Assembly: GCA_963698975.1 (NCBI GenBank)
Contig: CAVOSV010000003.1
Coordinates: 591,199-655,198 of the forward strand
Direction: 5' to 3'
Length of the DNA: 64,000 nucleotides
Source: an uncultured Gemmatimonadales bacterium
GTDB lineage: Bacteria; Gemmatimonadota; Gemmatimonadetes; Gemmatimonadales; GWC2-71-9
Shown here: positions 130-39,203 of the stretch, piece after piece
Layout: each line of letters begins with the position of its first letter
How positions within the stretch are numbered: the first letter of the stretch is position 1
Position numbers and translations under genes: made by a program
The notes under the pieces: generated by a model
The model's database searches: none
The model's input: only the letters and a program-made list of their open reading frames with translations
Told to the model about the DNA's origin: nothing

Positions 130-287
130 CGGGCGACGCTCGGCTCTGCAATCTTCATCGTCCCAAGTTGAAACCAGCACGGCGGGGCTCGCGTACTACA
201 TCGGTCATGATCTCATCCCCAGACCACCATCCCGTCGCCGTGTTGGAAACCGCGGTTGGACGCTCGCTTAGTCACTAAGGAACAGAC

Positions 288-1571
288 ATGCTGCGAAGAA
301 CCCGGATCTGGCTCATTGCCGCAGTAGTGGTTCTGGCAATCGGCGGCGGGGTGGCGTTCCAAATTCACAAGAAGAAACACGCCGGTACCGAGGTGAGATT
401 GGAGCAGGTGAGCCGTCGGGACTTGGTGGCCTCAGTAACCGCCAGCGGCAAGATCGAGGCGAAGACCTCCGTTGACATCAGCGCGGATATCACCGGCCGG
501 ATCATCGATATCGCCGTGCGTGAGGGCGATCTGGTGAAACGCGGCCAGTTCCTGCTGCAGATCGATCCGGCGCAGTATCAAGCAGCGGTGGCGCGGGCCC
601 AGGGTGTGGTGTCCTCGACCGAGGCCACCCTGCTGCAGACCCGGGCAACCCGGGACCAGGCGCAGCGGGCCTGGGATCGTGCCCGGCAACTGAAGGAACT
701 GGGCGACAATCTGATTGCCCCGGAGACTGCGGAGCAGGCGCAAACCGCCCTCGACGTCGCCGAGGCTAACTACCAGGCCAGCAAAGCCCAGCTGGACCAG
801 GCTCGAGCCAGCCTGCAGGAGAGCAAGGACAATCTGTCGAAGACACGCCTGACTTCGCCCATATCAGGGCGAGTGGTGCGGCTGGCGGTCGAGGAAGGTG
901 AAGTGGCAGTGCCGGGAACCTTCTCCCGGGAAACCGGACTGCTGATGACCATCGCCGACCTGTCCGTGATTCTGGCGAAGGTTCAGGTGGACGAGACCGA
1001 TGTGGTGCGGCTGAGCTCGGACGACTCGGTGGAAGTCACCATCGACGCGTACCGGGACACCACCTTCTGGGGCCGGGTGAGCAAGATCAGTCACAGCGCC
1101 AAGTTGACGCCCACCGAAACCGCCTCGGGCTCGAGTGACCGGGCAGTGGATTTCGACGTGGAGATCACGCTGCGGAATCCTCCACCTGACATTCGTCCTG
1201 ATCTGAGCTGCACCGCCCGGATCATCACCGATACCCGCAACAACGCGCTGAGCATTCCGATCATCGCCCTTACGGTACGAGAGCACGAGAAGATCCCGAG
1301 CGAGGCTGAGGGAGCGCCGCAGGTCGACACACTCCGGGCCCGGTTCAGGAAGAGGGAGGCGGAAGGCGTATTCGTGGTGCGCAACGGGGTCGCCACTTTC
1401 CGACCGGTCAAGACGGGTGTTGCGGGAGACGACTATTTCGAGGTGCTAGATGGTGTAAGGGAGGGAGAAACTATCGTAGCGGGAACCTATCAGGCCATTC
1501 GGGACCTGAAAGACCAGGCCAAGGTCCGCCAGGCCGACACCACCAAGGCCCGGGAAACCAAGGCGTCCTAG
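288..1571 (+). CDS. HlyD/MacA-type efflux periplasmic adaptor subunit
   Basis: ATG preceded by AAGGAA. N-terminal TM (IWLIAAVVVLAIGGGVAF), long coiled-coil segments (QYQAAVARAQ.., ANYQASKAQLDQARASLQ), lipoyl-like LTSPISGRVV. Its stop overlaps the next gene's GTG by 1 nt (TAGTG). Confidence 0.85.
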   Translation: MLRRTRIWLIAAVVVLAIGGGVAFQIHKKKHAGTEVRLEQVSRRDLVASVTASGKIEAKTSVDISADITGRIIDIAVREGDLVKRGQFLLQIDPAQYQAAVARAQGVVSSTEATLLQTRATRDQAQRAWDRARQLKELGDNLIAPETAEQAQTALDVAEANYQASKAQLDQARASLQESKDNLSKTRLTSPISGRVVRLAVEEGEVAVPGTFSRETGLLMTIADLSVILAKVQVDETDVVRLSSDDSVEVTIDAYRDTTFWGRVSKISHSAKLTPTETASGSSDRAVDFDVEITLRNPPPDIRPDLSCTARIITDTRNNALSIPIIALTVREHEKIPSEAEGAPQVDTLRARFRKREAEGVFVVRNGVATFRPVKTGVAGDDYFEVLDGVREGETIVAGTYQAIRDLKDQAKVRQADTTKARETKAS

Positions 1572-2812
1572 TGCGTCTCCTGGAAGCTATCCGGATGGCG
1601 CTGCGCACTATCCGGGCCCAGAAGCTCAAGAGCTTCTTCTCGCTGGTTGGCGTGCTGATCGGCGTGACCTTCCTGATTGCGGTGGTCTCCATCGTTCAGG
1701 GCATGAACCGCTATATGGTGGACCGGTTCGCCAACACGTTGGTGGGGGCCAATACTTTTCACCTGCGCCAGCGACCCTCCATCACTACCGGCAACGTGCC
1801 GGAGGATGTGTGGCGGGGCTGGCTCAGGCGCCCGCGAATCACCTATGGCGATGCCGACTACGTCCGCGAGCGGATCAAGACCCCCGCCAGCTTCGCCAAG
1901 TTCTGTGAGGACCGGGTGGCAGTCCACTATGAGGGCAAGGTGGCCAAGGATATCGACCTGATTGGCACCGAGGAGAGTTATTTCAACATCAAGAACTATG
2001 TCATCACCCAAGGCCGTACCTTCACCACGCAGGAGGTGCGCACCGGTCTGCCGGTGCTGGTAGTCGGCTCTGAGCTTGCCCAGAAACTGCTGGCCGGGGT
2101 GGATCCCCTCGGCAAGCAGGTTGTCATCGGCGGCCTTCCCTACCGAGTGGTAGGCGTAGTGGAGAGACAGGGGAACCTCTTTGGGATCTCGCTGGATAAG
2201 TTCGCGATCATGCCGTTCAGCGCTCCAGGCCGCCGCCTGATCTGTCCCATCAACATCCTGGATGCCCTGATCGTGCAGACGGCCAACCCGACGGAGATGC
2301 AGAACGCCCTGGCGGAGGCCGAAGCACTGATGCGAAGCCGCCGGCAATTGAAACCGGAGCAGGAAAACAATTTCGCGTTTCAGACTGCGGAGGGCGCGCT
2401 GGGCGGCTGGCAGAAGATCTCTCGGGTGCTGTTCGTCGCCCTGCCCGGACTGGTGGCGATCTCCCTGGTTGTGGGCGGGATCGTGATCATGAATATCATG
2501 CTGATGGCCGTGAGCGAGCGCACCCGGGAAATCGGAATTCGGAAGGCGCTCGGCGCGAGGCGGCGGGACATCCTGGCCCAATTCGTGGTCGAGTCGGCCA
2601 CGCTCTCTGCCGTCGGGGCGGTGTTCGGGATCGGACTGGGCATCGCGCTGGCGTTCGTGGTCAAGGCGGTGACGCCGTTGCCGGCCGCGGTAGCCCCCTG
2701 GTCAATCCTGGTGGCGGTAGTCCTCGGGGTGAGCGTGGGCATTGCGGCCGGGGTGTATCCCGCAAGCCGGGCGTCGCGGCTGGATCCAATCGACGCGCTG
2801 AGGGCGGAATGA
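1571..2812 (+). CDS. ABC transporter permease, MacB/FtsX family
   Basis: N-terminal TM, large periplasmic domain, C-terminal FtsX-like 3-TM bundle with the signature ERTREIGIRKALGARRRDI. Confidence 0.85.
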   Translation: MRLLEAIRMALRTIRAQKLKSFFSLVGVLIGVTFLIAVVSIVQGMNRYMVDRFANTLVGANTFHLRQRPSITTGNVPEDVWRGWLRRPRITYGDADYVRERIKTPASFAKFCEDRVAVHYEGKVAKDIDLIGTEESYFNIKNYVITQGRTFTTQEVRTGLPVLVVGSELAQKLLAGVDPLGKQVVIGGLPYRVVGVVERQGNLFGISLDKFAIMPFSAPGRRLICPINILDALIVQTANPTEMQNALAEAEALMRSRRQLKPEQENNFAFQTAEGALGGWQKISRVLFVALPGLVAISLVVGGIVIMNIMLMAVSERTREIGIRKALGARRRDILAQFVVESATLSAVGAVFGIGLGIALAFVVKAVTPLPAAVAPWSILVAVVLGVSVGIAAGVYPASRASRLDPIDALRAE

Positions 2813-4071
2813 AGGGCCAGCGAAAGGGAGCCCTGCTTCCCCGCATGCTGGAAGGATCGGTCATCGCGCTGGACTCGATCCAGGCCAACAAGGTGCGGGC
2901 GGCCCTGACAATCCTGGGCGTAGCGATCGGGGTAACGGTCGTGATCGCCATGGCCTCGGCGATAACCGGGATCAACCAGAGCGTTACCAACATTCTCGAG
3001 TCGGCTGGGCCGAAGACGTTCTTTGTGTATCGCTACTTCTCCGGCGGGCTCGACGTTTCCGATGGTTCCGACGAGCTGTCCCCCTGGCGCCGGATGCCCT
3101 GGCTCACGGTGGATGAGGCAGAGCTGATCCGAAATCTGCCCGCCGTGCGGGACGTCAACATCGGCGAGTACACCAATGGGCCGGTGAGCTTCGAGGGGGT
3201 GGAGCTCAAGAGCGTGGCAATTGCGGGGATGAGTCCGAGCTGGAACCAGGTGAACGGCGGCGAGATTCTGGCGGGACGGAACTTTACTCCTATGGAGTAC
3301 GCGGCCGGTGCGCGGGTCGTGATCATCAACGACAAGCTGGCCGAATCACTCTTCCCCCGGCGCGATGCCATTGGGAAGCGGATCAAGATCTTCGGCGAAC
3401 CATTCGAGGTGATCGGGATGCACGCCGAAGCGGCATCGCTCTTCAGCAACGCCGACGAGCCCCGCCTGGCCATCCCGCATACCACCTTCACCAAAGTTAC
3501 GGACTACGAGAAGGGCTGGATGGATATCGCGGTGCTTCCCGCGGAGACCGCAACCATTCAGGAGGCGCAGGATCAGGTGGCGGCCGCCCTCCGGGTTAAG
3601 CGGGGACTCCGCCCGGGCCAGCCGGACAACTTTGCGGTGGTAACGCAAGACCGGGTACTTGACAGCTTCAACAAAATCACCGCGGCGTTCTTCGTAGTGA
3701 TGATCGCCCTTTCCAGCGTCGGACTGATGGTCGGGGGCGTGGGTGTGGTGGCCATCATGATGATCTCGGTTACCGAGCGCACCCGGGAGATCGGGGTCCG
3801 GAAGGCACTGGGCGCTACCCGGCGGGAGATCATGTTCCAGTTCCTGGTCGAGGCAGCAACGCTGACTCTGGTCGGCTGCATCGTGGGGATGGCGCTGGGT
3901 GCACTGATCGCGTGGGCGATACGGTCCTTTACCCCCATCCCCGCCGCGGTACCGCTGCTGTCGGTCGTGGCAGCGGTACTCGCGTCGATTCTCACCGGTG
4001 TGTTATTCGGCCTCTACCCGGCGAGCAAGGCGTCACGGATGGATCCAGTAGAGGCGTTGCGGTACGAATAG
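2809..4071 (+). CDS. ABC transporter permease, MacB/FtsX family (second paralogue)
   Basis: ATGA overlap with the previous gene. Same architecture, with the signature ERTREIGVRKALGATRREI. No cognate ATPase in the window. Confidence 0.85.
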   Translation: MKGQRKGALLPRMLEGSVIALDSIQANKVRAALTILGVAIGVTVVIAMASAITGINQSVTNILESAGPKTFFVYRYFSGGLDVSDGSDELSPWRRMPWLTVDEAELIRNLPAVRDVNIGEYTNGPVSFEGVELKSVAIAGMSPSWNQVNGGEILAGRNFTPMEYAAGARVVIINDKLAESLFPRRDAIGKRIKIFGEPFEVIGMHAEAASLFSNADEPRLAIPHTTFTKVTDYEKGWMDIAVLPAETATIQEAQDQVAAALRVKRGLRPGQPDNFAVVTQDRVLDSFNKITAAFFVVMIALSSVGLMVGGVGVVAIMMISVTERTREIGVRKALGATRREIMFQFLVEAATLTLVGCIVGMALGALIAWAIRSFTPIPAAVPLLSVVAAVLASILTGVLFGLYPASKASRMDPVEALRYE

Positions 4072-4113
4072 ACGGACAGGCGAGAGGCGGACGGGCGGAC
4101 GGAACAGCTCGAC

Positions 4114-4196
4114 TCTCCGACCCTCCGTGTCTCCGACCCTCCGACCTCCGACCGTCCGACCGTCCGACCCTCCGACCCTCCGACCCTCCGACCGTC
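4114..4196. repeat. About 10 tandem 8-bp units, (C/G)TCCGACC
   Basis: Reads ctccgacc ctccgtgt ctccgacc ctccgacc tccgacc gtccgacc gtccgacc ctccgacc ctccgacc ctccgacc gtc. Lies between convergent genes and abuts the stop of the minus-strand gene at 4195. The unit length is not a multiple of 3. Confidence 0.9.
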
Positions 4197-5208: not shown

Positions 5209-5925
5209 ATGCCCGTGGACATCCTGGCCCTCGCCGCCCACCGAGACGACGTCGAGCTCACCTGCGCGGGCACTCTATTGAAGGCCGTCGACGCCGGATA
5301 CAAGGTCGGGATCCTGGACCTTACCGCGGGAGAGACCGGGACCCGAGGAAGCGCATCGCTCCGAGCGGAGGAGGCGGAGAGGTCGGCCAGGATCCTGGGC
5401 GTATCTGAGCGGCGGAATGCTGGACTGCCGGATGCACACCTGCAGAACTCGGAGGAAACACGGCAGCTGGTGATCGAGCACATCCGCCACTTTGCGCCGC
5501 GCGTGGTCATTCTCCCCTTCCCCGTGGGACGTCATCCCGATCACCGCATTGCCTCAGAGCTGGGACGCGACGCCTGCTACCTGGCGGGCCTGGAGCGATA
5601 TCCTGCGGCGGGATCTGCGCATCGTCCTCACAAGCTGCTCTATGCTCTCTCGTATCGCGAGGACCCGGTCAAGCCGACCTTCGTGGTGGACATCAGCGCG
5701 CAGTTCGAACGCAAGCTGTCGGCCATCAAGTGCTACGCCAGTCAATTCGATGGCGCCAAGGCGGCCGGAGAGATCTTTCCCACCGGGCAGGACCTGTATT
5801 CGCTGGTTGAGACCCAGAACGCGCACTACGGCTCCCTCATACGGAAGCGCTACGGTGAGCCGTTCTTTACCCATGAAACGATGGAAGTCGATGACGTCCT
5901 GAAGTTGGGCGTTCGGAGCATCTGA
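5209..5925 (+). CDS. bshB1: PIG-L/LmbE family deacetylase, BshB1-like (bacillithiol biosynthesis)
   Basis: N-terminal DILALAAHRDDVELTCAGT, TAGETGTRGS and HPDH motifs typical of BshB1/LmbE. Confidence 0.75.
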   Translation: MPVDILALAAHRDDVELTCAGTLLKAVDAGYKVGILDLTAGETGTRGSASLRAEEAERSARILGVSERRNAGLPDAHLQNSEETRQLVIEHIRHFAPRVVILPFPVGRHPDHRIASELGRDACYLAGLERYPAAGSAHRPHKLLYALSYREDPVKPTFVVDISAQFERKLSAIKCYASQFDGAKAAGEIFPTGQDLYSLVETQNAHYGSLIRKRYGEPFFTHETMEVDDVLKLGVRSI

Positions 5926-5945
5926 ATAGGCGCTATCTTATCGAT

Positions 5946-7160
5946 ATGAAGCCGCCTGTCTACCTGGACCACGCCGCCACCACCCCGGTTCGCCCCGAGG
6001 TGCTGGAGGCCATGATGCCCTATCTCACCGACCAGTCCTTCGGAAACCCGTCCAGCGCGCATCGCTTTGGGCGCGCGGCCAGGGCCGGCATCGAGCAGGC
6101 TCGCCGACAGATAGCGGAATCGCTGGGCGCCGAGCCGGGCCAGGTGATCTTTACTTCCGGCGGCACCGAGGCGGACAACCTCAGCATCGTGGGGGCAGCC
6201 CTTGCTGCCCGGGACCGAGGTGCCCCGATGTGCGCCGCGGTGTCAGCGGTCGAGCACAAGGCGGTCCTGGCGGCGGCTCATGCCGTCTGTCACCTCGGCG
6301 GGCGAGAGGTGCTCCTGCCGGTAGACAGCGCGGGCATGCTCGAGCTGGAGGCGCTCGACCGCGCGCTGGCCGAAACGCCTTCGGTAGTTTCAGTGATGTG
6401 GGTCAATAACGAGGTCGGCGTCGTCCAGCCGGTGGCTCACATTGCTGAACGCTGCCGAGACGCGGGCGTCATCTTCCATACCGACGCGGTGCAGGCACTC
6501 GGCAAGCTGCAGATCTCACTCCAGAACCTCTGCTGCACCCTGCTTACCATATCTGGTCACAAGATCGGGGCGCCCAAGGGTATTGGCGCCCTGATCGTCC
6601 GGGACCGCAAGGCGGTGGAGGCAATTCTCCACGGCGGAGGCCAGCAGTATGGGATCCGTCCCGGCACCGAGAATGTGGCCGGCGCCGTGGCCTTGGGGCG
6701 AGCGGTGCAGCTGGCCACCGCGGAGAGAGAGACTCTGGCGCAGCGTCTTGCGGCGCTCCGGGACGAGCTAGCGCGGCGGCTCCAAGAGACGGTGCCCGAC
6801 CTCACGGTGAACGCCGAGGGCAGCGAGCGGGCGCCTCATCTTTTGAGCATCGCGGTAGAAGGTGCGGACAGCGAGGCGTTGCTGATGCACCTAGATCTTG
6901 CCGGGATCGCTGCCTCCAGCGGGTCGGCCTGTTCCACGGGTGCGGTGGAACCATCGCACGTACTGGTCGCCATGGGCGTTCCCCGAGAGCTGGCACTGGG
7001 CACCATCCGGTTCAGCTTTGGCCGGGAGAGCAGCATGAACGACGTGGAGCGGGCCGCGGAGGTTGTGCCGGGGGTGGTGGCAAAAGTGCGGAAGCTCGCA
7101 GGGGTGCTGGGACGGACCGGCGGAATGACGGAAAAGCGGAAGGAGTCGACCGCCCGATGA
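5946..7160 (+). CDS. Cysteine desulfurase (NifS/IscS class)
   Basis: PLP-lysine motif ISGHKIGAPKG and active-site loop SSGSACS. ATGA overlap with mnmA. Confidence 0.9.
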   Translation: MKPPVYLDHAATTPVRPEVLEAMMPYLTDQSFGNPSSAHRFGRAARAGIEQARRQIAESLGAEPGQVIFTSGGTEADNLSIVGAALAARDRGAPMCAAVSAVEHKAVLAAAHAVCHLGGREVLLPVDSAGMLELEALDRALAETPSVVSVMWVNNEVGVVQPVAHIAERCRDAGVIFHTDAVQALGKLQISLQNLCCTLLTISGHKIGAPKGIGALIVRDRKAVEAILHGGGQQYGIRPGTENVAGAVALGRAVQLATAERETLAQRLAALRDELARRLQETVPDLTVNAEGSERAPHLLSIAVEGADSEALLMHLDLAGIAASSGSACSTGAVEPSHVLVAMGVPRELALGTIRFSFGRESSMNDVERAAEVVPGVVAKVRKLAGVLGRTGGMTEKRKESTAR

Positions 7161-8212
7161 GCACCCGCGTCCTGGTCGCCATGTCCGGTGGAGTGGACAG
7201 CTCCGTTGCCGCGGCCCGCCTGGTTGAGCAGGGGTACGAGGTGGTGGGCGCTACCATGAAGCTCTTCTGCTACGGCGAAGAGGTCCCCGATCGGCCTTGC
7301 TGCTCGCTGGATTCCATCAACGATGCGCGGGACGTTGCCGCGGCATTGGGTATTGCCCACTACGTCCTCAACCTCGAGGACCGGTTCAATCTGCACGTGA
7401 TTCAGAACTTCGTGAGCGAGTACAGCAGGGGGCGGACACCCATTCCCTGCGTGCGCTGCAACTCCTTCACCAAGTTCCGCGACCTGCTGGCCCACGCCGA
7501 CGCACTGGACTGTGAATACATCGCAACCGGCCACTACGCCATCTCGCAGGATGGCGCGCTCTACCGGGGCGCGGATCCGGCCAAGGACCAGAGCTACTTC
7601 CTCTGGGGAATCGATCAGGCTGTGGTAGCGCGGATGCTGACGCCGGTCGGCGGTCTGAGCAAGTCAGAGACCCGGGCCTACGCCCGTCGGCTGGGGCTCA
7701 CCACGGCCGACAAGCAGGAGTCGGTTGAGATCTGCTTCGTGCCCAATGACGACTACGTCTCAGTGCTGGAACGGCATCTCCCGGCCGACGCCCCGGCGCT
7801 GCGCCCGGGACCTCTAGTTACCACCGGAGGCCAGATCATCGGCGAGCACCAGGGCTACGGCCGGTATACCATCGGCCAGCGGAAGGGGCTCCCCGGCGGC
7901 TCAGACGGTCCCCGCTATGTGGTAGAGATTCGCCCCGAGCGGCGTGAAGTTGTGGTGGGAGCTGCCGCCGACCTGGCCGGCTACAGAGTGACACTGGAGG
8001 AGGTGAACTGGCTGGCAGATCCGCTGGAAACCGGCGACCGCTGTCAGGTGCAACTCCGGTACAGGGCGCGCGCCGCTCAGGCCGTAGTGTTGGAAAAGAA
8101 TTCGGACCAACTTACCCTGACGTTGGAAACACCTGTCCGGGCCATTGCGCCTGGGCAATCGGGCGTACTCTATGAGCATGATCGGGTGCTGGGCGGAGGC
8201 GTGATCTCCTGA
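7157..8212 (+). CDS. mnmA: tRNA 2-thiouridine(34) synthase MnmA
   Basis: PP-loop VAMSGGVDSSVAA, conserved Cys pairs, length typical of the family. Confidence 0.9.
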   Translation: MSTRVLVAMSGGVDSSVAAARLVEQGYEVVGATMKLFCYGEEVPDRPCCSLDSINDARDVAAALGIAHYVLNLEDRFNLHVIQNFVSEYSRGRTPIPCVRCNSFTKFRDLLAHADALDCEYIATGHYAISQDGALYRGADPAKDQSYFLWGIDQAVVARMLTPVGGLSKSETRAYARRLGLTTADKQESVEICFVPNDDYVSVLERHLPADAPALRPGPLVTTGGQIIGEHQGYGRYTIGQRKGLPGGSDGPRYVVEIRPERREVVVGAAADLAGYRVTLEEVNWLADPLETGDRCQVQLRYRARAAQAVVLEKNSDQLTLTLETPVRAIAPGQSGVLYEHDRVLGGGVIS

Positions 8213-15009: not shown

Positions 15010-15279
15010 TCATGCCAGAGTCGCCTCCATACGCCGTACAATGGCCTCGGCCCGTCTTCGAAGCATCGGCTGCCGTTCCCAGGCAAGGTAGTCCCGCAAC
15101 AAACGCACGGTTTCCACCTCGTTCTGTCCTGCCAGAAAGCCCAGCGCGGCCAGTCGCCGGAGCGGCCGAGGGCTGAAGAGATCCCGCCGGTGGTAGGTGA
15201 GCCGCTGCTGGGCAAGGAGCCAGCCACCGGTTATACCCAGCACCACTCCCCCGGCAAACACCCAGGCGCGCGACCGCAT
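15010..15279 (-). CDS. Small membrane-anchored protein with a HEAT-like helical repeat (hypothetical)
   Basis: One N-terminal TM (AWVFAGGVVLGITGGWLLA). Its ATG shares a base with the recR stop (TGATG), suggesting translational coupling. Good GC3 bias. Confidence 0.55.
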   Translation of the reverse strand: MRSRAWVFAGGVVLGITGGWLLAQQRLTYHRRDLFSPRPLRRLAALGFLAGQNEVETVRLLRDYLAWERQPMLRRRAEAIVRRMEATLA

Positions 15280-15869
15280 CAGCCAACGTCCTGCCGGGCA
15301 ACCAGAGCGTGCGCCAGCGTGACGCCATCGATGTATTCCAGGTCTCCACCCATGGGAAGCCCTCGCGCCAAACGGGTAACTCTGACCCCCATGCCGGACA
15401 GCAGTTGCTGAATGTAGGTGGCGGTGACCTCGCCTTCCATCGACGGATTGGTCGCCAGAATCACTTCTCGCACCCCGCCATGGCGGACCCGTTGCACCAG
15501 GCTATCCAGCCGAAGCGACTCCGGCCCGATTCCGTCGAGCGGGGACAAATGCCCGCCCAGAACGTGGTAGTGGCCGCGGAAGTCGGTCGAGCGATCTACC
15601 ACGCCCACCGTCGAGGGCTCCTCCACCACACAGACCACTCCGGCATCTCGCCGCGGATCCTGGCAGATGGCACAGGGTTGGTCCTCAGTGAGGTTGCCAC
15701 ACTCACTGCAGGGCCGGACCCGTTCGGTCACGGAAGCGAGCGCCGAGGCGAGCCGCCCGACCTGTTCCGGTGGTTGCTGAAGAAGATGAAAGGTGAGCCG
15801 CTGCGCCGTCTTCCGCCCGATTCCGGGAAGCCTGGCAAGCTCGGTGATCAGCTCGTCGATCGCGCTCAC
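15279..15869 (-). CDS. recR: Recombination protein RecR
   Basis: HhH N-terminus, C4 zinc finger CSECGNLTEDQPCAIC, Toprim domain. Confidence 0.95.
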   Translation of the reverse strand: MSAIDELITELARLPGIGRKTAQRLTFHLLQQPPEQVGRLASALASVTERVRPCSECGNLTEDQPCAICQDPRRDAGVVCVVEEPSTVGVVDRSTDFRGHYHVLGGHLSPLDGIGPESLRLDSLVQRVRHGGVREVILATNPSMEGEVTATYIQQLLSGMGVRVTRLARGLPMGGDLEYIDGVTLAHALVARQDVG

Positions 15870-15872
15870 CGG

Positions 15873-16202
15873 TCAGAAAGGAGAGCCAAATGGCAGCGAG
15901 GGCACCTTCCGCATTTCGCTCTGGAGCATTTCGGCTGCCCGGCGCTGAGCCTCGGCCACCGCGGTCAGCACGAGATCGCTGAGAAATTCGGCGTCATGAT
16001 CCTGAAATACGGCCGGATCGATCCACACTGCGCGTACTGTGCCACGGCCATCGGCGGTGATCTTCACCATGCCGCCGCCCGAGGAGGTCTCGATGGTACG
16101 GTTTGCCAGCTCCGTCTGGAGCTGCTGCAGCCGGCCCTGCATCTGCTGGCCCAGCTGAAAGAGTTGCTGAAGATCTGCCATGCCGTCTGGTAATCCAGCC
16201 AT
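15873..16202 (-). CDS. ybaB: YbaB/EbfC nucleoid-associated protein
   Basis: Typical sequence of about 109 aa (MQGRLQQLQTEL....SSGGGMVKITADG). Conserved dnaX-ybaB-recR order. Confidence 0.9.
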   Translation of the reverse strand: MAGLPDGMADLQQLFQLGQQMQGRLQQLQTELANRTIETSSGGGMVKITADGRGTVRAVWIDPAVFQDHDAEFLSDLVLTAVAEAQRRAAEMLQSEMRKVPSLPFGSPF

Positions 16203-16251: not shown

Positions 16252-16848
16252 TCAGTCTACGATCTCCAAATCTAACGCATCGGCCGCCGTGTCGAGGGCG
16301 GGGTCCTTGGCCCGGAACTCCCGCAGGCGGTCAGCTTTGATGCTCGAATCGGACATTCGGCGGGGCTTCGGCTGGGGGGCCTCCGACTGTTCCGGATTGG
16401 GCACCAGCCGCAAGCGGATGGGCTGGCCGAGGCTGCGGGTGAGGATCTCCTCCACCTTTGGGGCCTCCTGCTCCAGCCGCTCGGCGAACAACTGGTTGGG
16501 CTCGCTGAGTGCCACATTGAGGTAAGGCAGAATCAGGGCCACCGGCTCGACCGAAGCCAGGAGCTCGCCCAGCAACCGGCTCTGCACCCGGGCAGCGACG
16601 ATTATCGCGGGCCAGCCGGCACGAATGGCCTCGATCGAGGGGGCCAGTTTGGCGGTGGGCGGGGCCGCAGGGCCGCGGGGCTGTTCGGCAGATTCCGCCG
16701 GAGGACGGGCTGTTGCAGCTGCAGGGGTAGGATCCGGCCTCGATTCCACGCCACCCATCTGACCCGCGGATTCCTGGGGCGCTGCCCCGCTGCCGCGCTG
16801 CCCCACCGACTTCTGCCCCACTGCCCCGCCGCCCCGCTGTCCTTCCTG
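16252..16848 (-). CDS. dnaX: DnaX tau linker and C-terminal domain, encoded in the +1 frame relative to the dnaX N-terminal part
   Basis: Frame is open from the TAG at 16849-16851. Encodes ..PSIEAIRAGWPAIIVAARVQSRLLGELLASVEPVALILPYLNVALSEPNQLFAERLEQEAPKVEEIL....ALDLEIVD, typical of the tau C-terminus. Confidence 0.7.
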   Translation of the reverse strand, partial: QEGQRGGGAVGQKSVGQRGSGAAPQESAGQMGGVESRPDPTPAAATARPPAESAEQPRGPAAPPTAKLAPSIEAIRAGWPAIIVAARVQSRLLGELLASVEPVALILPYLNVALSEPNQLFAERLEQEAPKVEEILTRSLGQPIRLRLVPNPEQSEAPQPKPRRMSDSSIKADRLREFRAKDPALDTAADALDLEIVD

Positions 16849-17965
16849 CTAAAACCTTCTCCAGATCCACCACTCGGTCCATCAACGACCAGCGCAGCAG
16901 CAGGGTCTCGACCGCGAGGCGCGGATTGACGCTGCGGCGGATGTTGTTCTCGTCCTCCGCCAGTAAGCGCAGCATTCGGAGCACGTCGCCCGGCTGCAAA
17001 CGGCTCCGGTACTCCTCCAGCCGTGCGCGGACCGCCTCGGTGAGCCCGTCCGGCTCGGCACCGACCTGGAGCATCAGCAAGGCCCGGAGCACGTCGGCAG
17101 CGCCGGACATGAATTCCGAGAGGTCGACCCCTGCGTCACACAGCCGGTCCACGAGCGGGAAAACTGCGCCGGGTTCCCGCTCAGCCACCGACCGCAGCAG
17201 CTCTCCGAAAAGCTCATCATCGGCCAGCCCCAAGACCTCCCGGACCCGTTCCGCCGTCACTACCCCTTCCCCGAAGCTCAGGCACTGATCCAGAATCGAA
17301 AGCGCGTCCCGCATTCCGCCATCGGCGTGGCGGGCGATCAGCGTGAGCGCATCGTCCTCGGCTTGGAACCCCTCCGCCGCGAGCACCTGCTTGAGCCGGT
17401 CCCGAATGGCGCCGGGACCGATTCGGCGGAAATCGAACCGCTGGAGGCGGGACATCACCGGGGCTGCCGTGGCCGCGATCTTCTGGGGCTCGGTAGTGGC
17501 AAAGACGAAGATTACCCCTGGCGGCGGCTCTTCCAGGATTTTCAAGAGCGCGTTCCACGCCTCGCGGGTCAACATGTGCGCTTCGTCGATGATGTAGACC
17601 TTCGAGTGGCCCTCGCGCGAGGCGGCGTACATGGCCCGCTCCCGCAAGTCCCGAGCATCTTCCACGCCCCGGTTGCTGGCAGCGTCGATCTCGATCACGT
17701 CGAGATTGGCCGAGCCGTTCCAGATGCGGAGGCAATTCTCGCAATCGCCGCAGGGATCACCTGACGGCTCTCGCTGGGCGCAGTTCAGGGCCATGGCAAG
17801 GATGCGGGCGGCAGTGGTCTTCCCGACCCCCCGGGGACCGGTCAGCAGATACCCATGCCCTACGCGACCCCGGGAAACGGCGCCGCGGAGCACGGCCGCG
17901 ACGTGGTCTTGCACCAGGAGGTCGGAAAAGCGCTTGGGACGATATCGGCGAGCGAGGGAGATCAT
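16331..17965 (-). CDS. dnaX: DNA polymerase III subunit gamma/tau (frame-0 reading; only the part upstream of about 16850 looks authentic)
   Basis: Starts MISLARRYRPKRFSDLLVQ at ATG 17965. Walker A GPRGVGKTT, DEAHML, Zn module CAQREPSGDPCGDCENC. Downstream of about 16850 frame 0 gives Arg/Gly/Pro-rich text unlike DnaX. The ORF-track start at 18019 runs into the SRP RNA. Confidence 0.85.
   Translation of the reverse strand: MISLARRYRPKRFSDLLVQDHVAAVLRGAVSRGRVGHGYLLTGPRGVGKTTAARILAMALNCAQREPSGDPCGDCENCLRIWNGSANLDVIEIDAASNRGVEDARDLRERAMYAASREGHSKVYIIDEAHMLTREAWNALLKILEEPPPGVIFVFATTEPQKIAATAAPVMSRLQRFDFRRIGPGAIRDRLKQVLAAEGFQAEDDALTLIARHADGGMRDALSILDQCLSFGEGVVTAERVREVLGLADDELFGELLRSVAEREPGAVFPLVDRLCDAGVDLSEFMSGAADVLRALLMLQVGAEPDGLTEAVRARLEEYRSRLQPGDVLRMLRLLAEDENNIRRSVNPRLAVETLLLRWSLMDRVVDLEKVLAGRTAGRRGSGAEVGGAARQRGSAPGIRGSDGWRGIEAGSYPCSCNSPSSGGICRTAPRPCGPAHRQTGPLDRGHSCRLARDNRRCPGAEPVAGRAPGFGRAGGPDSALPQCGTQRAQPVVRRAAGAGGPKGGGDPHPQPRPAHPLAAGAQSGTVGGPPAEAPPNVRFEHQS
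16781..16842. repeat. About 7 tandem 8-bp units (GCTGCCCC-like) inside dnaX
   Basis: Reads gctgcccc gctgccgc gctgcccc accgactt ctgcccca ctgccccg ccgccccg ctgtcc. Contains the dispersed motif GCGGGGCAGCG (minus strand). Confidence 0.85.
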
Positions 17966-17984: not shown

Positions 17985-18090
17985 AAGTGCCTCAGGCACC
18001 CCGAAGCGACACCGGACATCGCTTAGCGCTGCTACCGGCGAGGTCCTGACGCGGTTCGCGCGCCGGCGCCCTTCGGACCTGAGGCATCAG
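17985..18090 (-). ncRNA. ffs: Small (4.5S-type) signal recognition particle RNA
   Basis: Minus-strand hairpin of about 100 nt closed by UGCCUCAGG (18086-18078) and CCUGAGGCA (17996-17988). Its core, GCGUCAGGACC-UCGCC-GGUAGCAGCGCUAAGCGAUG, matches the helix-8 consensus GUCAGGUCC-GGAA-GGAAGCAGC..AAG..GAUG. TATATT lies 6 nt upstream of the 5' arm and a U-tract follows (CUUCUCUUUUU). The position directly upstream of dnaX matches the conserved scr-dnaX-yaaK-recR synteny. Confidence 0.65.
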
Positions 18091-35906: not shown

Positions 35907-36494
35907 TTAGGGTGAATTGGTGGGGAGAAAAAGGAGGGGATACCGGCCGGCCTTGTGAGCCCGGGCTTCCTCGACGTAGTGCTTCCAGGTGGCGGCAATC
36001 CGCTCTGCCAGAGCGGCATCCACCTGACGGACGATGCGTCCCGGAACACCCATGACGAGGGACCGGGGTGGAATCTCCATTCCCTCAGGCACCACAGCTC
36101 CCGCGGCCACCACGCTTCCATTCCCAATGCTGACCCCGTTGAGCAGTACGCTCCCCATGGCAATGAGGCAGTCATCCCCTACCGTGCAGCCATGGAGGAC
36201 GACTCGGTGGCCAACGCCGACCCGCGCTCCCACGGTGCAAGGCACGCCCTCGTCCACGTGGACCACCGTACCATCCTGGATGTTGGATTGAGCGCCGATG
36301 ACGATCGGAGCCATGTCGCCCCGCACCACGGCGTGGTACCAGATGCTGGCGCTTTCGCCCAGAGTCACGTCGCCCATCACGGCAGCGGTGGGCGCGACGA
36401 AGGCGGAGGGATGGATCCTGGTCAGCGAGAGTCCTTTACTGTTGCTGGGCCGGAGGGAACAGCATCTGGGTCCAACCCTCGACCGGAGCCCCAT
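35907..36494 (-). CDS. Gamma-carbonic-anhydrase-like hexapeptide-repeat protein (YrdA/PaaY family)
   Basis: IHPSAFVAPTAAVMGDVTLGESASIWYHAVVRGD and left-handed beta-helix repeats. The start at 36494 overlaps the kinase 3' end by 59 nt. Confidence 0.8.
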   Translation of the reverse strand: MGLRSRVGPRCCSLRPSNSKGLSLTRIHPSAFVAPTAAVMGDVTLGESASIWYHAVVRGDMAPIVIGAQSNIQDGTVVHVDEGVPCTVGARVGVGHRVVLHGCTVGDDCLIAMGSVLLNGVSIGNGSVVAAGAVVPEGMEIPPRSLVMGVPGRIVRQVDAALAERIAATWKHYVEEARAHKAGRYPLLFLPTNSP

Positions 36495-38472
36495 CCTTCA
36501 GCGCCGGGTGCCAGGTAACCGTCCACACGAAATTGCGAACGGCCCGTTCGAAGGCTGGATCGTTTGAGGGATGGAGCCGCATGATGTCCACCGTCCTCCC
36601 TTCGGCGGAGACTTTGACCCACAGAAGAGATGGACGCGGTGAAGACTGCGCATCCGGGGGGAGTGCGACAAAGGGAGGGTTGACCGGTTTGGGCCGCTCC
36701 TCATAGCAGGAGCCATCGGCGTTGTAGCCCGGACCCGGCACACAGCCCGGTTCGGCTTGGCGGCGCGCCTCGGGCTTGGCGGTCAGCGGAGCCCCGATCT
36801 GGGTGAGCTGCGGGGTAAGCTCCTCGACCGCCCCCGGGCGCACCACGATGGTATCAGAGTAGAAATTGTAGCGCGGCGCCGAGATGGCGAGCGCATGGGG
36901 GCCCGGCGCAAGCTTGGTAAGCGCCTGCGTGATCGGTTGCTCATCGATCATGACCGTAGATCCGCGCGGCAGACCGGACAGGCGGATGCCGCCGCTGTCC
37001 ACCGGTCCAACTACGTCATTGGGTGCGGCCGACCGGGCAGCCGATGAATCCCGGAACCGCTTGCCGGCCGCGGAGTCCGGCAGAAGGGGCGAGGAGGCTT
37101 TGGGTGAGGCGGCGGTGTCCCGCGGAGGAGTGAGAGTCTGAACTGCCGTGGTATCGATCCGCTGGCCGGTGTCACCCGCAGCCTTCAGGGAATCCGCCGG
37201 CTTCGCGGCAACCCCCACCGGGGCGAATCCGTGGACCGCGAAGTAGTAGAGGGCACCGCCCACGCCGCCCAACACCGCCAGCAGAATCCAGAGCCAGGCC
37301 CAGGACGACGAACTGCTGCGCATGGCCACTGAGCGGTCTGCTACCCGCCGGGGCACCTCGCGACGTTCCCGGGGCGTCATTCGCCGGTTGACCAGCGGAG
37401 AATCGAGCGGGGTGGTGGGTTGACTCACTATGGGTGGAAACGGCCCGCCACTCGCCACCGAGCCCATACCCGAGCCGGCAGCGGCCGCGGCGGGAACCAC
37501 GTTCGCCATGCTGGTGCGCACCGCTCCGGTTGCCGCGATGGGGTGACCCTGAAATGAGGCGATCAATTCCTCGCAGGTCTGATATCGATCAAACGGGTCC
37601 TTCATCAGCATCCGCTTGATGATTTCGAAGAGACGGCGCTCGTCCGCGGTGACCAAGCTGGGCGTGGGGATCGGCTCGGTGATGTGCTTATATCCGATCG
37701 AGAAGCTGTCCTCGCCATCGTAGGGCACGCTGCCGGTAAGGCACTGATAGGCGACAATGCCAAGGCTGTAGATGTCGCTCCGGCCGTCGATCGGCTGGGC
37801 CCGGGCCTGTTCCGGACTCATGTAGTGCGGAGTTCCGATGGACATGCCGGTCCCGGTGAGCTTCTGTCCGGACGCTGCCTTGGCGATGCCGAAATCGGTC
37901 AGCACGCTCTGCCCGAACTCGTCGAACATGATGTTGTCGGGCTTGATGTCGCGGTGTACGATGCCGCGCTGGGCCGCATAGCCCAGAGCACTCCCAGCCT
38001 CCAGCAGGAGCCGCCTAATCTCGGGCGGGGTCAGCTTCTTCCGGTGCCCCAGGATTCCAGACAGTGAGCCGCCCCGAAGAAATTTCATCACGAAGTAGAT
38101 GACCCGGTCAGAGCGGCCGACCCGGTAAATCGGAATGATGTTGGGGTGCTCCAGCTGAGCCGCCGTGCGCGCCTCCCGCTGGAAACGCTCCACGAATTCG
38201 GAGTCGAAGGCCAGGGAAAACGGCAGAACCTTGACCGCAACCTCCCGCTCCAGCTGCCGATCCTTGGCCCGGTAGACCATTGCCATCCCGCCCCGACCCA
38301 GCTCCTCGATGATGTCGTATTCGGCGGCGAGCGACTCCCGCACCAGGTCAAGCTCCTGCAGGACCCCCGTGGCAATGGCATGCACCGGAGTGGTGGCCAT
38401 CAGGTCCAAGCCGCAGGAGGGACAGAACTTCGATTTTCCGGTGATTTCGCTGCCACAGCGGGAGCAGAACAT
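36436..38472 (-). CDS. Ser/Thr protein kinase with N-terminal zinc ribbon, TM, PEGA-like and TonB-C-like extracytoplasmic domains
   Basis: Starts MFCSRCGSEITGKSKFCPSCG at ATG 38472. Kinase motifs VAVKVL, HRDIKPDN, DFGIAK, SPEQ. One TM (WAWLWILLAVLGGVGGALYYF). C-terminal ..WVKVSAEGRTVDI......PALKDGAPVEGW resembles the TonB C-terminal fold. Confidence 0.85.
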   Translation of the reverse strand: MFCSRCGSEITGKSKFCPSCGLDLMATTPVHAIATGVLQELDLVRESLAAEYDIIEELGRGGMAMVYRAKDRQLEREVAVKVLPFSLAFDSEFVERFQREARTAAQLEHPNIIPIYRVGRSDRVIYFVMKFLRGGSLSGILGHRKKLTPPEIRRLLLEAGSALGYAAQRGIVHRDIKPDNIMFDEFGQSVLTDFGIAKAASGQKLTGTGMSIGTPHYMSPEQARAQPIDGRSDIYSLGIVAYQCLTGSVPYDGEDSFSIGYKHITEPIPTPSLVTADERRLFEIIKRMLMKDPFDRYQTCEELIASFQGHPIAATGAVRTSMANVVPAAAAAGSGMGSVASGGPFPPIVSQPTTPLDSPLVNRRMTPRERREVPRRVADRSVAMRSSSSSWAWLWILLAVLGGVGGALYYFAVHGFAPVGVAAKPADSLKAAGDTGQRIDTTAVQTLTPPRDTAASPKASSPLLPDSAAGKRFRDSSAARSAAPNDVVGPVDSGGIRLSGLPRGSTVMIDEQPITQALTKLAPGPHALAISAPRYNFYSDTIVVRPGAVEELTPQLTQIGAPLTAKPEARRQAEPGCVPGPGYNADGSCYEERPKPVNPPFVALPPDAQSSPRPSLLWVKVSAEGRTVDIMRLHPSNDPAFERAVRNFVWTVTWHPALKDGAPVEGWTQMLFPPAQQQ

Positions 38473-38546
38473 AGCGCGCAAGCTACGCGGTGGCTTTGCT
38501 GAGTCAAGCGGAATCGCGTGGCGTATCGCGAGATGCTTTGCACTAA

Positions 38547-38656
38547 GCGGGGCAGCGGGATGGCTCGGCAGCGAGGGCGATTCGGCCTTGAAATTCGACT
38601 CCACTGCAAGATGGGAGGTAATTGCTGGACACTGACCTGCTGCCCCGCTGCCCCGC
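38547..38656. repeat. Perfect 13-bp inverted repeat, GCGGGGCAGCGGG / CCCGCTGCCCCGC, with an 84-nt spacer
   Basis: Arms at 38547-38559 and 38644-38656, in the divergent region between the kinase and the 150-aa gene. Shares the GCGGGGCAGCG motif with the dnaX repeat. Confidence 0.85.
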
Positions 38657-38750
38657 CACCATTGGCACGTAGAATGCAGCCAACCCGACCGGTGGTCCGG
38701 CTCCCCCCAGCCTCGGGACCCCCGCTTCCCGCCATCATTCTGGAGAACCT

Positions 38751-39203
38751 GTGGTCCCGTATCACACGATTGCCTTCAGCCAACAGAAGCTCCGGGCGGC
38801 TCTGCGCCGCGCTGCTGGTCAGGACCCGGCCTTCAACTATGGCTTCGTGGTACACTCGCGGCGGCAGCATGAGCGCCCCACCCTGGGGTTGATTACCCTG
38901 CACGGGGAGAGCCTGGCGTTTAACGAGCGGCTGTTGAAGTCGCTGGACGGGCTGCCCCTCTGGCTATTCGGTCACGCCCGGATAACCCTGATACCCGGGG
39001 TGGCCGTGGCACCGGCAGAGGGCGGTAGGACCAAGCAGGCCGACCGTCCCCTGGCCTCCATGCTCATGAACATCGCCACCTTCGACACCAGCACCGGGGT
39101 CACCCAGCATCTGGTTCAAGTGGAGGCGGTGGTCAAGGCGGAAAGCCTGGTTCAACCCCTGCTGATTCTCACGCCGTCGCGTCCCGCCGCCTGGCCGATG
39201 TGA
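38751..39203 (+). CDS. Hypothetical protein (150 aa)
   Basis: GTG start with GGAGAA upstream. Strong GC3 bias throughout. No family recognised. Confidence 0.5.
   Translation: MVPYHTIAFSQQKLRAALRRAAGQDPAFNYGFVVHSRRQHERPTLGLITLHGESLAFNERLLKSLDGLPLWLFGHARITLIPGVAVAPAEGGRTKQADRPLASMLMNIATFDTSTGVTQHLVQVEAVVKAESLVQPLLILTPSRPAAWPM

Follow-up and report, generated by a model that had tools for sequence, protein, structure and literature searches.

The dnaX gene of Escherichia coli undergoes a -1 frameshift at A_AAA_AAG, with a Shine-Dalgarno-like element upstream and a stem-loop downstream, and gamma ends one codon past the shift. In Thermus thermophilus, transcriptional slippage in dnaX requires a run of about nine A or T residues. 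Tau, which binds the Pol III alpha subunit and DnaB through its C-terminal domains, is essential in the bacteria studied so far. The zero frame of E. coli dnaX encodes tau, and the shift leads to the short gamma (PMC5009743). "Reversed" dnaX candidates with a frameshift-derived tau have also been described, for example in Chlorobium phaeobacteroides (PMC5009743). Metagenome-assembled genomes (MAGs) of the Microflora Danica set were built from Nanopore reads only, by Flye assembly and one round of Medaka polishing (PMC12313526).

Here, we analyzed a dnaX locus in a 64-kb stretch of DNA from a soil bacterium of the Gemmatimonadales (the window) in which domains I to III are encoded on the minus strand in frame 0 to about position 16850, while the remainder of tau lies in the +1 frame. 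If real, this frameshift would give an essential replication gene a new route to tau and gamma, through +1/-2 recoding or phase variation. According to the evidence, it is not real. The apparent frameshift is very likely a one-base insertion in a long-read consensus that does not exist in the cells, and dnaX is probably an ordinary single-ORF gene here, encoding a tau of about 570 amino acids (aa).

Reading frames of the dnaX locus

The features of the locus are as follows.

17986 to 18085, minus strand: small SRP RNA (ffs), directly upstream of dnaX (Rfam RF00169)
16841 to 17965, minus strand: frame-0 part of dnaX, ATPase domains I and II, Zn module, and domain III (375 aa)
16840 to 16849, minus strand: likeliest site of the one-base excess (GCAGGAAGGA, flanked by the Leu codon TTA and CAG CGG GGC GGC GGG)
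16780 to 16839, minus strand: tandem array of imperfect 8-bp units, resembling GCGGGGCA on the coding strand (Tandem Repeats Finder)
16331 to 16840, minus strand: spurious frame-0 tail, Arg/Gly/Pro-rich, about 170 to 172 codons, with codon usage unlike coding sequence
16252 to 16839, minus strand: +1-frame segment, linker and C-terminal domain of tau (195 aa, QRGGGAVGQK...ALDLEIVD)
15873 to 16202, minus strand: ybaB, downstream of dnaX (ORF; Pfam YbaB_DNA_bd on the identical products of L083 and L151)
15279 to 15869, minus strand: recR, downstream of ybaB (ORF; Pfam RecR domains on the identical products of L083 and L151)

The order ffs-dnaX-ybaB-recR is the usual neighborhood. The true start of dnaX was placed at ATG 17965 rather than at 18019 because the SRP RNA, a full-length match to RF00169 (46 bits against a gathering score of 40, E = 6.7e-8), covers 17986 to 18085. 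From this start, the frame-0 product runs from MISLARRYRP... to ...DLEKVLAGR and carries GPRGVGKTT, IIDEAHML, and the Cys4 module in a single frame by translation. It thus has the N-terminal architecture of DnaX: an AAA+ clamp-loader module with Walker A and DEAH-type Walker B motifs, a Zn module, a lid, and domain III. Pfam models DNA_pol3_delta2 (PF13177), DNAX_ATPase_lid (PF22608), and DNA_pol3_gamma3 (PF12169) match frame 0 up to about aa 379, and NCBIfam dnaX_nterm (TIGR02397) matches it with an E value of 3.5e-114 (381.8 bits, cut-off 250). These motifs and matches confirm the original prediction, made from the sequence of the window, that the clamp-loader part runs in frame 0 to about 16850, and a codon-usage scan assigned coding potential in this frame to 16853 to 17944.

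In the +1 frame, no stop interrupts the sequence between the TAG at 16851-16849 and the TGA at 16254-16252, and the tau linker and C-terminal domain lie within 16848 to 16252. This segment matched positions 396 to 570 of NCBIfam PRK14965 (E = 1.7e-7) and, weakly, Pfam DnaX_C (16 to 17 bits, under the cut-off of 26.2), a model matched by four of the seven aligned relatives (best E = 6.4e-7). A database search gave 260 homologues of the +1-frame segment, the best with E = 3e-72; many carry the name DNA polymerase III gamma/tau, and in 100 short-read relatives this tau-specific C-terminal domain is in one ORF with domain III. The assignment of the tau linker and C-terminal domain to the +1 frame, up to the stop at 16252, is borne out by these results.

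Frame 0 stays open to 16331, as had been noted, and has no DnaX character there. Over 16639 to 16252, the codon score is +34 in the +1 frame versus -43 in frame 0, and GC3 in frame 0 over the C-terminal part is 0.44. The tail without coding character extends for 519 nucleotides (nt), the longest for any high-scoring ORF of the 64-kb window, and the 562-aa frame-0 product is a singleton cluster, recorded from one contig. Judged by codon usage, the frame-0 tail past the junction is not a real coding frame. The same scan found no second frameshifted gene in the 64-kb window, which indicates that the contig is not generally noisy. Overlapping stop-to-stop ORFs at 279 to 4071 and 5895 to 8212 were considered as broken genes, and Pfam shows that they are separate intact genes (HlyD, two MacB-type permeases, an aminotransferase, and MnmA).

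Position of the frame change

The original prediction placed the frame change exactly inside an array of about seven 8-bp units. Such an array is present (period 8, 7.6 copies, score 57), but it is imperfect, with 69% matches. It encodes a G-Q-R-G-S-G-A-A type beginning of the tau linker, its double-octamer pattern occurs 6 times in the window versus 0.31 expected by chance, and every octamer unit contains GCWGC. Many relatives have the same octamer arrays in frame, among them L005, L006, L013, L014, L021, L026, L032, and L068. Because an octamer array gives an identical 8-aa peptide in all three frames, peptide similarity cannot place the shift within the array, and we relied on alignment of the DNA with that of short-read relatives.

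The sequence CAG CGG GGC GGC GGG downstream of the junction also occurs in seven short-read relatives (L006, L084, L086, L094, L022, L126, and L096). In all seven, the distance from the Leu codon to this sequence is exactly 9 nt, compared to 10 nt (GCAGGAAGGA) in the window. The difference suggests a single surplus base immediately before the array, at 16840 to 16849, and not a unit gained or lost within it, so that a frame change exactly inside the repeat is not supported. The strict bounds of the frame change are 16816 to 16849, and 16840 to 16849 is the most parsimonious placement by DNA comparison with the relatives. The window junction carrying the extra base reads GCAGGAAGGACAG; taking one A out of 16840 to 16849 yields VLAGRQRGGG or VLAGGQRGGG, and an in-frame 9-nt version between TTA and CAGCGG would read, for example, GCAGGAGGA or GCAGGAAGG. 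Homology to the same-species contig L151 ends at 16843, and the rare codons AGG and ACA (3.6 per 1000 each) fall in frame 0 at 16840 to 16849. The arithmetic of the original prediction, that 8 = 2 mod 3 and that the fused tau would have about 570 aa, is right.

Junction state in short-read and Nanopore assemblies

We compared 125 related Gemmatimonadales loci, comprising 101 from assemblies classed as short read by contig naming (k141_, k127_, NODE_, Ga...) rather than by metadata and 24 from Nanopore-only Microflora Danica MAGs. The junction between domain III and the C terminus was intact in 100 of the 101 short-read assemblies and broken in 9 of the 24 Nanopore-only MAGs. Among GTDB species representatives, 49 short-read assemblies were intact and 1 was broken, while the Microflora Danica "contig_N" MAGs included 15 intact and 10 broken junctions (9 distinct). 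All 49 JGI metagenome contigs were intact. Across the GTDB and JGI sets, the break is associated with how the assemblies were sequenced (Fisher P = 9e-7) rather than with phylogeny.

The intact relatives include two short-read contigs of the same species (96 to 98% DNA identity): L151 (13.3 kb, 96 to 97% identity over 6.5 kb) encodes one 587-aa dnaX product, and the linker of L153 (97%) is read through in frame. Contigs that are 96 to 98% identical in their flanks carry three different linker alleles. The same-species alleles are in frame, and they differ by wholesale replacement of the linker, not by unit number.

Frame changes in the Nanopore loci are not confined to the linker. Conserved flanking genes contain 21 in about 80 kb of Nanopore loci versus 0 in about 142 kb of short-read loci, and the linker is an approximately 7-fold hot spot within the Nanopore loci (1.8 versus 0.25 per kb, Poisson P = 7e-6). 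L003 requires about three shifts inside one linker. The shift is +1 in the window, L029, L042, and L055 and +2 in L001, L027, L039, L067, and L078; with amounts that differ in this way, there is no conserved signal. Four of the species with broken Nanopore linkers (L029, L039, L042, and L055) have no octamer units at all. The lone broken short-read MAG, L033, has its linker defect at a G8 run.

A split dnaX throughout the lineage had been suggested by a first protein search, which returned mostly ORFs of 110 to 200 aa, even on contigs of 170 to 400 kb. We rejected this reading on the DNA evidence: the contigs in question come from Nanopore assemblies, in which recR, ybaB, and the dnaX N terminus are frameshifted too. 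An exact 21-mer of the domain III end had 0 matches among metagenome contigs, and a homologue search with the repaired junction peptide, made in search of a linker from the same strain, found no near-identical linker. The best match to that peptide, P0167 (77%), comes from a noisy assembly in which the frame shifts inside the C-terminal domain instead.

The contig that encodes the 562-aa product is 672,745 bp long, from which we infer that the window very probably derives from a long-read MAG as well; the contig is on record from NCBI and ENA, as are the Microflora Danica MAGs. In Nanopore-only MAGs, frameshifts recur in the Gemmatimonadales dnaX linker (about 9 of 24 species representatives), and split dnaX calls in such genomes, along with "hypothetical" ORFs of 110 to 200 aa that are really tau C termini, should be treated as assembly errors rather than as biology.

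Origin of the extra base and comparison with known systems

Of the three explanations offered by the original prediction, assembly error is supported and recoding and slipped-strand polymorphism are argued against. Intact dnaX genes in 100 of 101 short-read relatives, including the two of the same species, make a long-read consensus error most likely and leave no call for a new recoding mechanism. In the reading that we propose, tau has its usual layout, with domains I to III followed by a Gly/Gln/Arg/Pro-rich linker and then the C-terminal domain of tau. The extra base would sit at the linker edge, introduced in the consensus sequence of a metagenome-assembled contig that is most likely Nanopore only. 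The linker is GC-rich, built of octamers, and different between strains of one species. Where co-occurring strains have conserved flanks in common, reads probably pile up inconsistently at the linker, which would yield a wrong polished consensus. The extra base is most likely absent from the cells.

Three observations sit less easily with a consensus error: there is no other frameshifted gene in the window, homopolymers of at least 5 are absent from the junction, and the short-read assembly L033 is also broken. Together with the fast evolution of the linker seen in its three alleles, they favor a genuine one-base insertion, either a recent inactivation or a minority allele in a hypermutable linker. 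Cells with such an insertion would be dying unless a second dnaX copy or in-frame siblings rescued them. We consider this unlikely, given that tau is established to be essential, that the short-read relatives are intact with a single exception, and that the surplus of broken linkers tracks technology. Still less probable is slipped-strand variation in octamer copy number that toggles dnaX between tau-producing and gamma-like states in a phase-variable manner. In its favor, a unit of 8 bp is not divisible by 3, a subclade conserves octamer arrays where the linker starts, and one added unit would restore the frame with a plausible linker, VLAGRTAGRRGSGAVGQKSVGQRGSGAAPQE (compare VLAGKRGSGEAGKESAGQRGSGATGQK in L005); a perfect array would also give the same peptide in every frame, so peptide similarity cannot discriminate. 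Against this, an array with 69% matches suppresses slippage, DNA alignment sets the surplus base upstream of the first unit, and the same-species alleles are in frame. Moreover, no short-read relative is in an OFF state save L033, which is broken at its G8 run, Nanopore linkers break without octamer units, and dnaX is essential.

Programmed recoding, by +1/-2 ribosomal frameshifting or transcriptional slippage, would make tau from the shifted frame and a gamma-like product from frame 0. A few bacteria are reported to have a reversed dnaX with a frameshift-derived tau (PMC5009743), the clustered rare codons TTA, AGG, and ACA in frame 0 could pause ribosomes at the junction, and the downstream G-tracts might in principle form a G-quadruplex. 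No slippery heptamer (X_XXY_YYZ) was found in any register of 16960 to 16640, however, and there is no zero-frame stop near the junction, frame 0 continuing for 172 codons. The longest run in 16860 to 16780 is 4 (TTTT and GGGG), well short of the run of about 8 to 9 or more A or T residues for transcriptional slippage. The downstream region (16852 to 16760) is predicted to fold no more stably than shuffled sequence (minimum free energy of -33.0 kcal/mol versus a shuffle mean of -34.6, z = +0.47). After a +1 slip on GGA-AGG-A, base-pairing rules predict that the Gly or Arg tRNA would re-pair poorly. The split is not kept even within the species, and no conserved split or shift site was found among the relatives, the broken Nanopore relatives varying in both the direction and the position of the shift. 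Programmed recoding is therefore very improbable. A variant in which the extra base is real and tau arises by low-level +1 decoding at the rare codons of GGA-AGG-ACA, beside the G-tract octamer array that may be prone to form a G-quadruplex, seems equally improbable; if it were true, the dnaX linkers of Gemmatimonadales would more broadly carry octamer arrays that serve as switches of mutation or decoding, with gamma-like, truncated clamp-loader subunits as the outcome.

The window shares with E. coli the gene and the rough position, at the end of domain III and start of the linker, but its zero frame leads to a junk tail and its +1 frame to the tau C terminus, with no heptamer, close stop, or stimulatory structure. 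The T. thermophilus locus is alike in the gene and in giving two products from one locus, and it differs in that the longest homopolymer at the window junction is 4. Reversed dnaX candidates also have the tau C terminus in another frame than the N-terminal part; they use a -1 shift with E. coli-like signals and a zero-frame stop directly after it, presumably conserved, none of which is present in the window, and the same-species contigs of the window are unsplit. Simple sequence repeat contingency loci, which phase vary by slipped-strand mispairing, likewise have a tandem repeat in a coding region with a unit that is not a multiple of 3. Here, the repeat is imperfect, the gene is an essential housekeeping gene, the excess base is outside the array, and short-read relatives are never OFF at the array. 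The indels of Nanopore-only MAGs (PMC12313526) differ in that the window has no homopolymer of at least 5 at the junction, unlike the classic Nanopore homopolymer error, and the hot spot is instead a GC-rich, strain-variable octamer linker in a contig whose technology we infer. As in those assemblies, a single-base indel splits a conserved gene. Close relatives from the Microflora Danica catalogue are broken in the same linker and in neighboring genes, and the very long contig (672,745 bp) would suit an assembly of this type.

Reading frames of dnaX across the junction

The clamp-loader part of the minus-strand dnaX lies in frame 0 to about 16850, as in the original prediction, and DnaX-like sequence ends there with ...MDRVVDLEKVLAG. 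Walker A (GPRGVGKTT), IIDEAHML, the Cys4 Zn module, the lid, and domain III are all in this frame. Beyond the junction, frame 0 stays open for 172 more codons with no DnaX character, also as predicted; a codon-usage model, with the genes of the window as its training set, ends the coding segment at 16853, leaving a 519-nt tail without a coding look, the longest among high-scoring ORFs of the 64 kb. The tau linker and C-terminal domain were recovered in the +1 frame, which contains no stop between the TAG at 16851-16849 and the TGA at 16254-16252 and has a codon score over 16639-16252 of +34, versus -43 for frame 0. Profile searches of both frames divided as anticipated: frame 0 matched N-terminal models (Pfam PF13177, PF22608, and PF12169; NCBIfam TIGR02397, 381.8 bits), and the +1 frame matched NCBIfam PRK14965 (positions 396-570, E 1.7e-7) and gave a weak match to Pfam DnaX_C, which was found in four of seven aligned relatives (best E 6.4e-7). 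A protein search with the +1-frame part returned 260 homologues (E down to 3e-72). The repaired protein has 375 + 195 = 570 aa.

17986-18085, minus strand: SRP RNA (Rfam RF00169, 46 bits)

This RNA overlaps ATG 18019, the head of the mechanically listed 562-aa ORF, so the true start is ATG 17965 (MISLARRYRP...). The 'MSGVASGCLRHFSFWPAD' extension, conserved in relatives, is translated SRP RNA. The window's dnaX is an ordinary gene in the usual ffs-dnaX-ybaB-recR context. Downstream of recR (below 15279, minus strand, and in the related loci L001 and L151), a conserved set comprises an 89-aa ORF, a Roadblock/LC7 protein, a small Arf/Ras-like GTPase (together an MglB/MglA-like pair), and a CDP-alcohol phosphatidyltransferase.

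The octamer array and the position of the shift

16780-16839, dnaX linker: 8-bp tandem array (Tandem Repeats Finder: 7.6 copies, 69% matches, score 57)

The predicted array at the junction is thus present. Translated in any of the three frames, a perfect octamer array gives one and the same 8-aa peptide (G-A-A-G-Q-R-G-S), so a shift inside it can be placed by DNA alignment but not by peptide similarity. From AAG TCG GTG GGG CAG (16815 and below), the in-frame relatives L005 and L006 give a gapless alignment with the window in its +1 phase. In the seven short-read relatives that have the window's motif CAG CGG GGC GGC GGG, exactly 9 nt lie between the Leu codon and the motif (7/7), versus 10 nt in the window (GCAGGAAGGA at 16849-16840), where frame 0 uses the rare codons AGG and ACA (3.6 per 1000 each). 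Removal of one A yields the junction VLAGRQRGGGAVGQK (compare VLAARQRGGGAVGQQ in the relative P0002) or, alternatively, VLAGGQRGGGAVGQK (compare VLRGGQRDGGAGGQE in L086). Most parsimoniously, the shift would come from one additional base immediately before the first octamer unit. Gain of one 8-bp unit, one of the repairs proposed originally, is arithmetically possible and would also give a plausible linker, so the strict bound of the shift is 16816-16849. This bound overlaps the array, within which the switch had been placed, but the best-fitting site does not.

With 6 hits for the double octamer in the window versus 0.31 expected, the octamer seems to be favored in this genome. An exact GCGGGGCAGCGGGGCA, the same octamer, lies at 38633-38656 (-), near the 5' end of a Ser/Thr kinase ORF (36436-38775). 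A second, cleaner 8-bp array, CCGACCCT, at 4110-4193 (+) (10.6 copies, 85% matches, score 119) lies in the gap between two genes that converge on it, one for a MacB-type permease with its end at 4071 and the other on the minus strand with its end at about 4195. Since GGACGG-type units just upstream (4075-4100) are partly its reverse complement, the array may be a repeat-built hairpin or terminator.

The junction and linker in relatives

A lineage-wide split dnaX was suggested by C-terminal homologues that are mostly 110-200-aa ORFs, even on 170-400 kb contigs. It was ruled out by the DNA of L001 (92% identity to the window) and the more distant L002, both shifted +2, versus +1 in the window; L002 has further frameshifts in recR and the dnaX N terminus. 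The survey covered 80 loci of GTDB species-representative genomes and 66 of JGI metagenomes; a locus was scored as intact when the domain III end and tau C-terminal domain shared one frame with no stop between.

State of the dnaX junction in relatives
GTDB, short-read contigs, judged by MEGAHIT- or SPAdes-type names: 49 intact, 1 broken (L033)
GTDB, 'MFD....contig_N' Microflora Danica MAGs: 15 intact, 10 broken (9 distinct)
JGI metagenome contigs: 49 intact, 0 broken

The junction was thus unsplit in nearly all short-read loci and split in 9/24 from Microflora Danica (versus 1/99; Fisher p = 9e-7), whose MAGs derive from Nanopore reads only, Flye in metagenome mode, and one Medaka polishing round (PMC12313526). 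In conserved flanking genes (dnaX N terminus, ybaB, recR, SnoaL-like gene, and BrkB-like gene), frame changes numbered 0 in about 142 kb of short-read sequence versus 21 in about 80 kb of Nanopore sequence. Nanopore linkers had 1.8 events per kb versus 0.25 per kb in flanks (Poisson P = 7e-6). About three shifts are needed within one linker of L003 (Nanopore), P0167 (another assembly) has its linker in frame and a shift inside the C-terminal domain, and shift size and place vary among broken loci, all of which indicates error, not signal.

The only broken short-read relative, L033 (MEGAHIT contig, coverage 11), has a G8 homopolymer at the linker start (about 2790-2800). In L084, a short-read scaffold, an in-frame TGA in domain III (about 2365-2370) replaces a Cys codon of relatives (VDRL*EAGVDL versus VDRLCDAGVDL) and splits the gene call into 306 + 286 aa; either a substitution error or a true nonsense allele could account for it.

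L151 (JGI, 13.3 kb), which shares 96-97% identity with the window over 6.5 kb, encodes a single 587-aa DnaX with the linker read through; the linker is also in frame in L153 (97%), a Logan assembly from a public sequencing run. Short-read contigs carry the YbaB protein of the window unchanged. Homology to L151 is lost exactly across 16843-16664, and between flanks of 96-98% identity there are three unrelated linker alleles, one each in the window, L151, and L153, which suggests that the linker is replaced wholesale. Judged from these alleles, it is highly variable between strains of one species.

In a Gemmatimonadales subclade (L005, L006, L013, L014, L021, L026, L032, L068, and others), in-frame tandem GCGGGG(C/A)A octamers, usually 3-6 units, are conserved at the linker start (first ~60 nt) and encode G(K/Q)RGSG(E/A)A repeats. 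Their DNA period of 8, not 24, suggests that they arise through slippage at the DNA level in a disordered linker that tolerates it. GCWGC is present in each unit, and the G4-N4 spacing resembles that of a G-quadruplex.

Origin of the apparent frameshift

For the 562-aa frame-0 product, the record lists one contig, of 672,745 bp, with NCBI and ENA as sources, as for Microflora Danica MAGs such as L002. In a soil Gemmatimonadales, a contig this long suggests assembly from long reads, and the apparent +1 frameshift is most likely an error of one base in the consensus of a long-read MAG. The assembly error foreseen originally is favored in this form, not as a collapsed repeat unit. Because the linker varies strongly between strains, mixed strains with different linkers could plausibly lead the long-read consensus astray there. 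A genuine strain-level mutation or heterogeneity is unlikely, same-species L151 and L153 being in frame. Unit slippage in the array could draw on the possible one-unit gain, but the excess base most parsimoniously lies upstream of the first unit and several broken relatives (L029, L039, L042, and L055) have no octamer units, which makes it highly improbable. A useful warning results: Nanopore-only MAGs have a recurrent hot spot of frameshifts in the Gemmatimonadales dnaX linker, which carries octamer repeats and differs between strains.

To programmed recoding, also raised originally, we assign hardly any probability. Conservation is expected of a programmed site, and the window's split is absent even within the species. 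At the junction, a slippery-site scan found no X_XXY_YYZ heptamer and no homopolymer of >4, no zero-frame stop lies near the shift site, and the downstream RNA fold has no extra stability over shuffled sequence (z = +0.47). The window fits no known form of dnaX recoding. Caulobacter uses proteolysis, and E. coli shifts -1 at A_AAA_AAG with a stop one codon later (PMC5009743), whereas the window has neither such a heptamer nor a near stop. Thermus relies on transcriptional slippage on an A-run (PMC5009743); the longest homopolymer in the window's junction is 4. A few "reversed" candidates make tau via a -1 shift with a zero-frame stop directly after (PMC5009743), in contrast to the +1 displacement and long open zero frame of the window.
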